DNA of 64,000 nucleotides from Octopus vulgaris. Its lineage: Eukaryota. A program made the position numbers and the translations under genes. Every line of letters starts with the position of its first letter. The first letter of the stretch is position 1. Positions 28,925-35,756 of the stretch are shown piece by piece. The notes under the pieces were generated by a model, which saw only the letters and a list, made by a program, of their open reading frames with translations, did no database searches and was not told where the DNA came from. The stretch covers positions 72,850,001 through 72,914,000 of the forward strand of contig OX597820.1 of assembly GCA_951406725.2 (NCBI GenBank), read 5' to 3'.

Positions 28925-29541
28925 AAAGGGGGTTAAAGATACAGTGGACAAACAAGGACAGACAAAGGGATCAAATCGATTACATCGACCCCAGTGTGTA
29001 ACTGATACTTAATTTATCGAACCAGAAAGGATGAAAGACAAAGTCGACCCCGGCGGAATTTGAACTCAGAACATAAAGACAGACGAAATACGGCTACGCA
29101 TTTCGCCCGGCGTGCTAACGTTTCTTATTTCTTTATTGCCCACAAGGGCCTAAACATAGAGGGGACAAACAAGAAAAGACAAAGGGATCAAATCGATTAC
29201 ATCGACCCCAGTGTGTAACTAGTACTTAATTTATCGACACAGAAAGGATGAAAGGCAAAGTCGACCTCGGCGGAATTTGAACTCAGAACATAGCGGCAGA
29301 CGAAATACCTATTTCTTTACTACCTACAAGGGGCTAAACACAGTGGAAACAAACAAGGACAGACAAACGGATTAAGTCGATTACATCGACCCTAGTCCGT
29401 AACTGGCACTTATTTAATCGACCCCGAAAGGATGAAAGGCAAAGTCGACCTCGGCAGAATTTGAAATCAGAACGTAGCGACAGACGAAATACGGCTACGC
29501 ATTTCGTCCGGCGTGCTAACGTTACTGCCAGCTCGCTGCCT
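28925..29541 (-). mobile_element. SINE family 2 tandem trimer
   Basis: Three collinear units with junctions at 29123/29124 and 29308/29309. Confidence 0.85.
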
Positions 29542-30808
29542 TAGAACTCCTAATAATATTGAATCATAAAAATACAATATAATTTTTTAAACATCGAATG
29601 GCCAGGTGGGTCCACCAGAATATAAAACAGGAGTCCAAGGAGTCCATAGGTAAAAAAAAAAAAATGCTTGAGAAACATTTATTTACGAGAAACTGTTCAA
29701 ACAAGAAATCGAAACTGGAACTATGGCATAGAAACAGCTGATTGAAAGCCTATTTCTTCTCTGCGGCACATGCTTCAATTCCGTATTCGAGAAAATAACT
29801 TCCAGTTCATCTGAACGGCAAAACCAATTAATTACCAATATTTTGGAGATGCACAGCCAATCGTTTAAACCTGAAGCATAAAGTACAGTAGTATAACAAC
29901 ATAAATATTATTATTTCCTCTGTCAGAACAAAACAAATCAAAATAAATTGACAGGAAATTATCAAGCTTCGCTATTTGTTCCCGACTTGATTGTTTCACA
30001 CATCTAGTTTGATTTTAATTAAATTGAATTCAAGTATTTATTGGTTTGTAAAAGAAATGATTGGTTATGAAATTAATTAGCTGATCTGTTCTTTTTAAGT
30101 AATAACAGATTTATAATCTAATTGCTAGCTTTAATATATTTCTGTAGTCATATCTAAAATCTCTGAATTAATTGTTACCAGATGACTGTCAAGAATAATT
30201 ATCGAGTGATATCTAATTTAAATTAGTGTCCTTCCAACTATTACGGCTGCTGAATAATATAATCTATAATTTTAGTTGCATTTAAAAATTAGCTTCGAAT
30301 AACTGACATCCATAACTGAAGAACCAGCTCATAGCTGAGAAATGGCCATCGTTTAAATTTTTAACACAGCACGAATTGCCAATGATTACGTTCACAGTAA
30401 AACCGCCGAATGGAAACCGGATGTCAGCTTCGATTCTCGATTAATGCCTCTTCACTTCATTTTTGTTTCTAACACATTTGTAGAATGCATGAATGTCACA
30501 GCATTATATTTCATGTCCTGTGTAAGCCTAGGGCTTTAACCTATCAATACTGTTCAGTGTAGGGACTGACAGGTGAAAGATTAGACCCAACGTTTCCGAG
30601 CGACTAAAAGAGGGTTCAAGGTATGATTTGTACCCTTATCTCGCAAAGCCTTCACCAGTAAAAACTACTGAAAACTGATTCACGGATTGGAGGGTTGTCG
30701 TGTGAGTGGTGCAAAGGGGCCATCCACCAGGAATGGTAGGGAATCACCAACAAACCGGGGATGCAACGATGCGCTGTTACAACACATGCACCCCATACTA
30801 GTATTATT

Positions 30809-30985
30809 TCTACTACTACTACAGCTGCTGCTACTACTATGATTGCTGCTGCTACTACTACGACTGCTGCTGCTGCTACTACCACTACTATTACGATTAC
30901 TACTGCTGCTACTACTACTACTAACTACTACTACGACGACGATTGCTGCTGCTGCTGCTACTACTACTTCTACTACTACTACTCC
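30809..30985. repeat. (CTA/CTG)n microsatellite
   Basis: Direct reading. Confidence 0.9.
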
Positions 30986-31227
30986 ACGTAAGCAAAAAGG
31001 CAGCTCTGTATGTGAATCTAGAAAATAATTATGATCTGGTTTTGAGTATCCCATTGACGCAGCTTAATCCAATACAAATACAGATAATCGCCAGACAGGG
31101 TTAAAGCGATACACCGAATGGGGAGGCTGAGTGTTCGAATCCAAAGTACAATTCATTCGACACGTTTCCGAACCGCCTAGTTTCTGTTTTGTGGCTTTTC
31201 ATTAACCCACGACTATAATGGTTCTAG

Positions 31228-32556: not shown

Positions 32557-32667
32557 CCATTTTAGAGGACATCTACGTAAAGTGTCACTCGATGGAATTG
32601 AAACCCAAATCTAGTAATTGCAAAACAAGCTTCTAAACCGCTCGACCATACCAGTTAATGGGTTAGT

Positions 32668-33498
32668 CAGTGGAGGAGCTAGAGCGTGTGCCACCTGCGC
32701 AACCCTTGAATTTATATATCCTGCCCTCACCCCTATACTGCAGACCTGAAAGTGCTTTCCAGCTAAGAGCGCCGCTCGGGACGGACCGTTATCATTCTCC
32801 GCTATCTTCGCTCCTGGAATAAGTCAAGAACTGTACGGCAATGCCCACAACTTTTTCCCATGCCACCATGACTAGCAGAAGGAAGTTATCTTTAGATAAT
32901 CGGATATTTGGTTACGAATGCTGGCTACATGATAGACTCGGTCAAGCGTTAGTGTTAAATGACGGACTAAATTGACCACCCAAATAGATATTTAGTGGGT
33001 GAACAAACAAATGAAATCCTACGTGGTCATTCGACCAACTAGAAATAGCAGCCAAGTCTCCTTCAAATACACCCTACTGTCTACAGAAACGGCCACGTTA
33101 GGTAATGTAGTCCCGAGTCCCTTACACATTGGAAAATAACGAGATGGTCCCGGCTGGGATGCCTTTGATCATAGGCCTGCTCGATCGGGCTTGACGCGGA
33201 GTTAGACAACAACCTCTTTGAATCAACAAGTATCTATATAGTGACACGACCGACAAGAAAGAGCAATCAAGTAACCCTCTCAAATTACATCTTATCGTCT
33301 TAGAAAAAGGGACACCCTGGAATGTGTGCAGTTGGGTAACTATGGAGGGAATGAGGGGGTGAGGGTGATGGTCCAACCCGGGTGACACTTTTATGAGGCG
33401 GTATTTTTTTTGGGGGGGGGGGTCACCTGTATATGTCTGCATGGGCTTAGGAGCCTTGGGGTGGGGACGGGGTAGCACTCACTCTAGCTACGCCACTA
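32668..33498. mobile_element. Possible old hAT-like MITE
   Basis: Imperfect TIR cagtggaggagctagagcgtgtgc vs gcactcactctagctacgccacta; no TSD recognisable. Confidence 0.4.
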
Positions 33499-34479
33499 AG
33501 AGTGTCGTCTTACATATATCTAGGGTATGTCCGAAAATAAGATTAAATGGCCATGGCTTGAACACCTTTTAGTATAAATCTACTCATGTATTAATTCAAT
33601 GACACTTAACATATTCTGATAGTTAAATACAATAATAGTTTCAAATTCTGGCACAAGGCCAGCAATTTCAGGGGTTGGTGTAAGTCGATTACATCGACCC
33701 CATTGCTCAACTGGTACTTATTTTATCGACTTCAAAAGGATGAAAGGCAAAGTCGACCTTAGTGGGATTCGAACTCAGAACTTAAGGACGGACGAAATGA
33801 CGCAAAACATTTTACCTGGCAGGCCACCTTAAATACAATAATAAAACGATAACATGCCCAACACATTTATGATCAATTCAACAGATGAATTTATTGATAT
33901 ACTTAGAACAACCACACCTAAAAACATCATTGCTCCCTAAGATGTTAAGCAGTTAATCATTAATGTGCCAATAAACATCGTAATATATTCCATAGTCAAG
34001 CATGCATACCATCAACACGATGGGTGAAATGCTTAGCGGCATTTTTGCCACCCTTACGTTCTGAGTTCAAATTACGTCAAAGTCGACTTTGCCTTTCATC
34101 ATACCGGGTTCGATTAAATAAATATTGGGGTCGATGTAATCGACAGATCCCCTCCCCTCAAATTTCAGGCCTTGTGTTATTAACTGTTCAATGTTTGGTT
34201 TATTGAAGCAAATTTCTACTGCATCGTCTTCTACACTTCCGTGTTACTGGGGTATGTGCAGCATTGTGTGTTCTTTTCTGCTGTTGGGAGTGTGCGAACT
34301 CTTCCTGGTACTGTATTGTGTTGTGGTGCTGTCTTTTGTTGTGTTACTGCTTATATCGTGTTGAGTGTGTAATACCTTGATTTCTGGCTTGCTGGTGGAA
34401 GTTTATTCCACTGGGTAAACGGTGTATAGAGTGTATCTTGTATTTGTGGGTTGCTTTGTTTAGGTTGTATTACTGGATT

Positions 34480-35756
34480 GATAACGTCTCATATAGGATA
34501 TGGGCAATTCCTAGCAGGGCTATTTTTTAGACAGTGTGTAGTGTTGAGGGTCCAGGTATAGCTTCTACATTTTTATTCATATAATTTTTTATCATGCCCA
34601 ATGCTCCAGTTATTCTTTTCTCCTCTAGGCACAAGGCACGAAATTTTGGTGAAGGGGACCAGTCGATTAGATCGACTCCAGTACGCAACTGGTACTTAAT
34701 TTATCGACCCTGAAAAGATGAAAGCAAAATCGACCGCAGCGCAACAGCGCAATTTGAGCTAAGAACGTAAAGACAGACGAAATACCTATTTCTTTACTGC
34801 CCACAAGAGGCTACACACAGAGGGGACAAACAAGGACAGACAAACGGATTAAGTCGATTATATCGCCCCCAGTGCGTAACTGGTACTTATTTAATCGACC
34901 CCGAAAGGATGAAAGGCAAAGTCGACCTCGACGGAATTTGAACTCAGAACGTAGCGGCAGACGAAATACCTATTTCTTTACTTCCCACAAGGAGCTAAAT
35001 ATAGAGGGGACAAACAAGGACAGACATAGGTATTAAGTCGATTACATCGACCCCAGTGTGTAACTGGTACTTAATTTATCGACCCCGAAAGGATGAAAGG
35101 CAAAGTCGACCTCGGCGGAATTTGAACTCAGAACGTAACGACAGACGAAATACCGCTAAGCATTTCGCCCGGCGTGCTAACGTTACTGCTAGCTCGCCGC
35201 CTTAATGCTCCAGTTATTATTGGTATTGTTTTTACCTTCATGCCCTATATTTTGAATACTTCAATTTCGAGGTCTTTGTACTTCGACAATTTCTCCAATT
35301 CTGCATTGGCAATCTTTTGATCTGAAGAAACAGTAATGTCTACAGGTGATTTTTCCCCAATCACTGACTATCATGTGTGGACGATTAGCTTTTATGAACC
35401 TGCATATCCGAGATGATTGTGGCCTGATCGTTGTCTTGTATCTTGCTTGGCACATGCTTATACCACTTGCACTCAGTTTTGACGTTGTAATGTTGGCATA
35501 TTTTCCAGTGGATATAACTGTTTACTTTGTCGTGTCTGTATACATATTCAGGCTTGGCAAGGACTGGGCAGCCCGAGGTGATGTGGTCAACTGTCTCATT
35601 GTGCTGGTTGCACAATCTACATTTGGTGTTGAGGCCTGTTTTCATTATTTTATTTTTATAATTTTTTGTAGTCAGGCATTGGTCTTGTGCAGCGAGAATC
35701 AGTCCTTTCGTTTCGGCTTTTTGTCCAAAGCTTTTGAGCCATTGTTGGCTTTTACT
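34480..35756 (-). mobile_element. 5'-truncated R4/Dong-like non-LTR retrotransposon fragment (CCHC plus restriction-like endonuclease), interrupted by a SINE trimer
   Basis: AETKGLILAAQDQCL..CRLC..ETVDHITSGC..RHDKV..IHWKIC, then ANRP(H)MIV and KTIPIITGALGMIK across the SINE. Confidence 0.8.
34615..35203 (-). mobile_element. SINE family 2 tandem trimer with 15-bp TSD
   Basis: TSD aatgctccagttatt at 34600-34614 and 35204-35218; internal junctions at 34785/34786 and 34969/34970. Confidence 0.92.

Follow-up and report, generated by a model that had tools for sequence, protein, structure and literature searches.

How does a short interspersed element (SINE) come to stand in head-to-tail arrays whose joints fall on two fixed bases of its own head? 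The question is raised by a 64,000-nucleotide stretch of the Octopus vulgaris genome (contig OX597820.1, positions 72,850,001 to 72,914,000), hereafter the window, in which copies of a SINE with a tail resembling the 3′ ends of Tx1-type long interspersed elements (LINEs) follow one another in dimers and trimers. A first-pass annotation had placed eight junctions between such copies on the minus strand (9015, 29308, 32016, 34785, 34969 and 39952 of one kind, 29123 and 31600 of another) and had proposed that Tx1-type enzymes insert the SINE into SINE heads. Every one of the eight was found in its place.

The SINE unit is 233 bases long, and the element is short, non-coding, dispersed and present in high copy number. 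A 170-base head and body is followed by one of two tails, a 'standard' one or one of about 63 bases that ends in GCCCCTTGTGGG(T/C)A(G/A)TAAAGAAATA, the first variable letter of which separates the T-type and C-type tails discussed below. In the folded head, position 48 lies in the 3′ arm of a long hairpin, which is flanked by words resembling A and B boxes; ARAGORN and Rfam returned no match in the window. A young subfamily of an abundant, putatively transfer RNA-type SINE carries a Tx1-like tail. The unit may resemble the published octopus SINE families (OK, OR1 and OR2) or Nin-domain SINEs. Among the SINE families named in the accessible part of PMC4758252 are OR2 and Nin-DC.

Solitary copies (solos) define where the tail stops. 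Target duplications of 13–23 bp flank the element in 24 anchored solo-ended cases, and under a looser rule they were detected in 25 of 43 Tx1-tailed solos. The first five letters of the duplication are identical on both sides in 21 of the 24 cases, and are commonly GGTAT, TATAT or AGAAA. Because solo copies carry the final G or AG in both target duplications, these letters, which the first-pass annotation had assigned to the tail, belong to the target. The true joints are AAAGAAATA to GGTATTTCG, at head position 48, and AAAGAAATA to AGAAACGTTAG, at position 15. With this correction the arrays of the window read as follows.

34611..35201, minus strand: trimer; full-head unit with a Tx1-type tail (35201-34971), C-type-tailed unit from head position 48 (34970-34787) and standard-tail unit from position 48 (34786 to about 34611).
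31850..32248, minus strand: dimer; full-head T-type unit (32248-32018) whose tail meets position 48 of a standard-tail unit (32017 to about 31850).
31406..31833, minus strand: dimer; full-head C-type unit (31833-31603) whose tail meets position 15 of a standard-tail unit (31602 to about 31406).
28929..29540, minus strand: trimer; T-type unit (29540-29310) followed by a C-type unit that starts at position 48 (29309-29126) and a position-15 unit with a decayed Tx1-type tail (29125-28929).
39785..40184, minus strand, outside the 28925..35203 region: dimer; T-type unit (40184-39954) whose tail meets position 48 of a standard-tail unit.
8850..9246, minus strand, outside the same region: dimer; T-type unit (9246-9017) whose tail meets position 48 of a standard-tail unit.
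9247..9291, minus strand: remnant of the host head (positions 1-45) immediately upstream of the 9246 dimer; a 44-bp tandem repeat.

The tail at 39952 ends in AAATG and that at 9015 reads AAAAAATA, both within the minor variants that the annotation had allowed for. The terminal unit is standard-tailed in five of the six arrays, again as described; the exception is the 29540-28929 array with its decayed Tx1-type tail. The outer duplication of the 34611..35201 trimer is 18 bp long with one mismatch. The residual head at 9247..9291 is the footprint of an insertion into a pre-existing SINE.

The same two joints recur across the genome assembly searched (G000; 2.8 Gb in 227 contigs). A 30-letter tail string has 80,506 exact matches, the tail followed by GGTATTTCGTC (head position 48) has 28,472, and the tail followed by AGAAWCGTTAGCA (head position 15) has 2,081; reversed-pattern controls gave 0. 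An unbiased sample of 800 kb, drawn as 80 stretches of 10 kb placed at round coordinates, contains 55 tails, of which 20 abut position 48 and one position 15; of its 21 tail-to-SINE joints, 19 fall exactly on one or other of these bases. A larger sample of 371 loci, enriched by our own searches, yielded 233 junctions at position 48 and 34 at position 15, so that 267 of 278 lie on those two bases. Arrays at locus edges or duplicated between loci were excluded, as were simple-repeat flanks in the duplication test and first units falling short of the head start. GGTAT was preceded by a tail at 20 of 49 sites located at SINE position 48 and at 21 of 1,187 sites elsewhere (odds ratio 38), an enrichment that local duplication somewhat inflates; the preference at position 48 thus exceeds what the 5-mer alone would give. 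A few joints (L140, L169, L180 and others; positions 41-42) have an extra GAAATA ahead of the target, suggestive of slippage as reverse transcription starts.

Tail variant and insertion site are strongly but not strictly associated. Among the first 100 matches listed for site 15 there are 65 CA, 22 CG, 9 TA and 4 TG tails, that is 87 C-type (GGGCA..) tails, while the first 100 listed for site 48 comprise 75 TG, 17 TA, 5 CG and 3 CA tails, or 92 of T-type (Fisher p 4e-32, with rows that are not independent). These tallies are hand counts from contig C1 and include runs within arrays. Scaling the shares to the genome totals gives an estimate of about 2,300 C-type tails at site 48 and about 1,800 at site 15; by this estimate T-type tails go almost only to position 48 and C-type tails are split roughly evenly. 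The annotation's statement that the tail variant predicts the site therefore holds as a bias and fails as a fixed rule, since window junction 34786 itself has a C-type tail at position 48. The bias extends to the first flank letters of solos, with AGA in 11 of 30 C/A-type and 3 of 53 T/G-type copies and GG in 23 of the 53 T/G-type copies; the pattern used, applied to solo flanks only, excluded G at +13 and hence omits site-48 junctions. As the bias is seen in solos too, it points to a general preference that the SINE head happens to satisfy well. It probably reflects subfamilies served by different Tx1 families.

The units of an array differ in age. The first unit is less diverged than the terminal standard-tail unit in 39 of 42 dimers, so that the comparison of inner and outer units called for by the annotation finds them not co-aged. 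Body divergence from the consensus across 72 arrays is 0.039 for first and 0.081 for terminal units, and among solos 0.049 for Tx1-tailed and 0.128 for standard copies. The outer duplications of standard-ended arrays have a mismatch of 0.12 (0.095-0.15, n=71), compared with 0.07 (0.05-0.095, n=52) for Tx1-tailed solos and 0.15 (0.095-0.205, n=32) for standard solos, as estimated by a mixture fit on 14-letter windows with simple-repeat flanks dropped. Since the outer duplication is as mismatched as an old insertion, the host likely came first. Site-48 pairs with a standard-tail downstream unit share only 3 of 105 rare variants, and on this count we rejected, for site 48, an origin of the first unit as a long duplication of the host body. 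We listed 66 different multi-unit architectures, with tail variants in either order, and the terminal units among those listed carry dissimilar private changes. The fixed architecture, co-aged units and young flanking duplications of an Alu-like dimer are not what these arrays display. One locus, L325, holds a tail-only insert, flanked by an 18-bp duplication with a private letter on both sides.

A second head is nearly always missing, a feature that the annotation's proposal did not explain. Of 157 joined full-head units, seven retain the host head upstream, window 9291-9247 included, and 150 do not; five of the seven retained host heads run through positions 58-69. Because so few retain it, the 5′ join was likely homology-guided. 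The surviving head is mostly newcomer-like at diagnostic positions. Host-type TT at positions 61/63 occurs in 35 of 42 terminal units compared with 1 of 42 first units, and position 19 is A in most Tx1-tailed solos (44 of 53) and in 45 of 72 first units, but in few standard solos (6 of 38). Retention of the host head by the first unit, by way of the duplication, is disfavoured by the single host-type 61/63 case in 42, a count that mismatched-end trimming could mask. By analogy with the 'anneal' junctions of R2, the heads are likely chimeric products of homology-guided joining.

Local DNA duplication is a second process that lengthens some arrays. Of 147 rare non-CpG variants, 22 are common to adjacent Tx1-tailed units, compared with about 1% in random pairs; such neighbours carry the same tail variant in 55 of 100 pairs (39.5 after shuffling), and 13 of 100 pairs lie within 3% of each other, compared with 0.1% of controls. 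Eight 184-bp units with one private tail variant (G000:C1:10398770-10400089) and three copies of a 401-bp double unit (C2:34439919-34440751) are SINE-derived minisatellites. Local tandem amplification with shared private variants, the hallmark of a SINE-derived satellite, was found in a minority of arrays.

The window also contains a Tx1 LINE with which the tail can be compared.

21481..26922, plus strand: frameshifted Tx1-type LINE with a zinc-knuckle open reading frame 1 (ORF1), endonuclease, reverse transcriptase (RT) and zf-RVT, lying inside the head of a different SINE.

The SINE tail has 26 letters identical to the 3′ end of this element and 29 identical to the Tx1 at L421. Its terminal hairpin is common to the L401-L417 Tx1 family, and other Tx1 families match other parts of the tail, with no single LINE matching all of it. 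L401-L417 is a young family whose last ~24 letters equal the TA-type tail of the SINE and whose 3′ flanks are variable. As it sits in the head of a different SINE, the window Tx1 is a relative of the partner LINE, not the partner itself; it was ruled out in that role by the finding that all 30 of 30 close copies, the window copy included, end at AGTAGCT, either in the head of the second SINE or in the spacer of a train there. Within 16474-27327 on the plus strand, four Tx1-type elements, three with ORF1 only and one with ORF2, stand head to tail in the second SINE's head, each followed by a AGTAGCTTGCT-like duplication.

Tx1-like 3′ ends do abut both sites of the SINE studied here, as the first-pass annotation had suggested looking for. 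L431, which encodes a Tx1 ORF2 C-terminus 56% identical to that of the window Tx1, ends at SINE position 15; L432, of the same family, ends there as well with host head 1-37 upstream, and L436 has another Tx1-like tail at this position. At position 48 the ends found are the mutually related, non-coding Tx1-like 3′ ends L445 and L446, the latter being 78-80% like the 3′ regions of ORF2-bearing Tx1 loci. The first three came from six regions examined and the last two from 20, the remainder being mostly SINEs. A partner LINE at site 15 or 48 was not found by an RT query (50 loci inspected), by a non-SINE-upstream pattern (30 of 550 loci and 20 hand-picked regions), in 30 of 750 loci of a further search or in a related exclusion-pattern search, in 30 of 150 loci of the zf-RVT family, or among the 55 matches of one more search, for which strings only were compared.

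Other Tx1 families of this genome have fixed ends elsewhere. Families at (CT)n and (ATT)n microsatellites (L061-L070, L074, L075 and L078) point to a broad target-specific Tx1 radiation within one genome. The 3′ ends of L071 and L076 (G000:C3:20827199-20833996 and C23:43309619-43316416) abut a sequence that we take to be the 5′ end of U2 small nuclear RNA (snRNA), in the manner of Keno; the near-identical L073 abuts a different repeat. L313 and L314 (L166), two copies of one element with a doubled Tx1-like tail, are both followed by the same GAGAACAGTTGAGTAGC sequence, and about 6 kb upstream contained no ORF2 match.

The explanation that we consider best, and probably correct, is Tx1-driven self-targeted insertion with a homology-guided 5′ join, supplemented by local duplication. 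Tx1 LINE enzymes likely insert the Tx1-tailed SINE with a preference for sites at positions 15 and 48 of its own head; given that preference, new copies would land in older copies and so build head-to-tail arrays. Insertion would proceed by target-primed reverse transcription by these LINEs, and the new complementary DNA (cDNA) would usually pair with the homologous host head, leaving no second head and a surviving head that is largely the newcomer's. The earlier proposal of sequence-specific insertion into SINE heads with two specificities is partly supported, by the Tx1-derived tail, the two sites and the Tx1 or Tx1-like LINE ends at both, but the specificity is loose: 34 of the 55 tails in the unbiased sample lie off both exact head sites, and among solos the favoured starts are GGTAT, TATAT and AGAAA. 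Its corollary, that self-insertion explains the dimers and trimers, agrees with the younger first unit on an older terminal unit, but some trimers and longer arrays derive from local DNA duplication.

Several observations weigh against this explanation. The origin of the head is mixed: in 42 dimers the host share estimated from divergence is 0.60 (bootstrap 0.26-1.13), and the divergence of first-unit heads (n=78) follows that of neither their own bodies (rho 0.09) nor the host bodies (0.01). The confidence intervals of the duplication mismatches touch at 0.095, and site-15 pairs with a non-Tx1 downstream unit share 9 of 73 rare variants, above the expectation for independent insertion. Enrichment at site 15 in the unbiased sample amounts to one case (1/80 compared with 5/7,059, p 0.07). 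The LINE evidence comprises two loci and one look-alike at site 15 and two loci at site 48, chosen from lists, and L445 and L446 are 231-base stretches without visible coding sequence. Several targeted searches yielded no LINE with a SINE-identical tail at either site, and the LINE tails do not mirror the bias of the SINE tails, being C-type at position 48 in L445 and L446 and T-type at position 15 in L431. Finally, in a presence/absence check over 28880-35500 with four public runs (X2, X3, X15 and X16 of 24), paralogous SINE contigs dominated, and no locus-specific joint and no empty allele were seen.

Four other accounts were weighed. Targeted insertion might leave the host head, a duplication and a full newcomer, the doubled head of about 60 bp being lost later by slippage or single-strand annealing. 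The seven arrays that are still doubled, the local slippage active in SINE arrays, and a dimer head divergence that peaks at positions 1-15 (0.088 compared with 0.047 expected for the insert), as a crossover gradient predicts, all agree with such a collapse; but it would have to be about 95% complete in copies merely ~4% diverged, and under uniform crossover position 19 should show a host share near 0.7, yet T is present there in 12 of 42 dimers compared with 28 of 38 standard solos. We regard it as unlikely. Somewhat less likely still is that rare nested insertions yielded dimers and trimers that the newcomer's promoter transcribes whole and the partner LINE of the standard tail spreads. This would directly account for the absent host head and the insert-type heads, and both the recurrence of one architecture (T-unit, C-unit at 48, unit at 15) and the enrichment of a 64C subfamily marker in first units (50/148 compared with 7/46 solos) fit it. 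Against it, the outer duplications of standard-ended arrays, at 0.12, are near those of old standard solos (0.15) and unlike those of young copies (0.07), variants occur in either order in the 66 architectures listed, the terminal units among these carry unlike private changes, and the same joints are used by LINEs and tail-only inserts. The mixed architectures, older terminal units and old outer duplications likewise disfavour the annotation's own alternative, two ancestral chimeric multimers amplified as whole units.

The landing site could instead be set by the RNA, if read-through letters past the tail pair with the nicked target so that the progeny of a source at GGTATTT or AGAAAC would be directed to those letters again. 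Tail variants do bias the first flank letters in solos as well, and template-tail annealing guides R2 3′ junctions in the accessible text of PMC11371274. Yet distinct LINE families occupy the two sites, the 24 cases show no clear pull to the motif where the duplications differ in their first five letters (2 compared with 1), and the accessible part of PMC4494074 ascribes Tx1 target choice mainly to the endonuclease; we judge this account improbable as the explanation of the arrays, while noting that it can coexist with self-targeted insertion. Purely by DNA duplication, arrays would arise between a GGTATTT behind a solo copy and the GGTATTT in its own head, with no targeting of the head. The 13 of 100 adjacent Tx1-tailed pairs within 3% (0.1% in controls), the eight-unit private-variant run and the thrice-present 401-bp double unit are of this kind; such duplication cannot, however, set a young Tx1-tailed unit before an older standard-tail unit when the two have only 3 of 105 rare variants in common, and it cannot leave behind a host head with a duplication; mixed-tail dimers contradict it as the sole cause, which makes it very improbable in that role.

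Further features of the window lie beside these arrays.

31215..31404, minus strand: standard-tail SINE with an internal deletion, beginning at position 15 right behind a standard tail; no Tx1-tail junction.

Standard-tail or truncated SINEs that start near position 13-15 without a preceding Tx1 tail, some of them right behind another standard tail, comprise this copy (31404-31215) and L019, L138 and L153. Within 42746-45021 there is a 99%-identical local duplication of about 615 bases (copies 43065-43678 and 43902-44517). Open frames of 303 and 253 codons at 54674-55582 (minus strand) and 62189-62947 (plus strand), judged by eye, resemble Tc1/mariner transposase fragments.

Beyond self-targeted insertion as such, we advance tentatively, as a possibility somewhat short of an even chance, that the element is a self-homing SINE: two Tx1 specificities would preferentially land in its own head, and at every landing a fresh promoter would replace the decayed one of an older copy. 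If true, RNA-templated editing guided by homology would be occurring naturally at tens of thousands of loci, old SINEs would be rejuvenated, and tails would be shuffled among subfamilies. The arrays also offer a possible route for the exchange of SINE modules and the birth of SINE-derived minisatellites. Most work on how the 5′ ends of non-LTR (long terminal repeat) insertions are joined, a step still poorly understood, has used engineered R2 or L1. This genome provides natural events by the tens of thousands in which the donor is homologous to the target and diagnostic letters tell the two apart, so that annealing, later collapse and whole-unit copying are separable by counting. Repeat libraries will misread such arrays as separate families or old dimers. 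We found no report of a SINE targeted to its own head by Tx1 in the literature searched, which largely excludes subscription papers and Repbase reports; these families could be present in the supplementary repeat library of PMC13282606.

Known systems share parts of this behavior. The squamate SINE-derived satellites and jerboa tandem Dip/B1 multimers in the accessible part of PMC10702118 are likewise tandem arrays of SINE parts, with local amplification and homogenisation, but are ascribed there to duplication or to multimers of full-length units, and no fixed enzyme-cut head site is described in that part. R2 proteins, in the accessible text of PMC11371274, produce seamless 'anneal' and duplicating 'join' 5′ ends. 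As in our arrays, the junction is seamless when the cDNA end matches the upstream target and a minority duplicate the shared stretch; that system is an engineered R2 in ribosomal DNA with a restriction-like endonuclease, whereas ours is a natural SINE with a putative Tx1 partner. Target-specific Tx1 LINEs, as covered in the accessible part of PMC4494074, include Tx1 in Tx1D, Keno in U2 snRNA genes, and Kibi and Koshi in microsatellites. They have in common with the present case an apurinic-type endonuclease with RT and fixed 3′ joints, and the genome studied here has families at (CT)n, at (ATT)n, at the presumed U2 5′ end and in a second SINE; the difference is that the passenger SINE is loosely specific and its preferred target is itself. 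The nearest known case is the crocodilian SINEU, which shares the target preference of Tx1-Mar LINEs (Kojima 2015, PMC4494074, accessible part). In both, a repeat serves as the target, the SINE shares a Tx1 preference, and tandem SINE copies are read as sequential insertions. The target of SINEU is a Mariner DNA transposon and its tandem copies sandwich a duplication, whereas the present SINE is targeted to two sites in its own head and its 5′ joints are mostly seamless.

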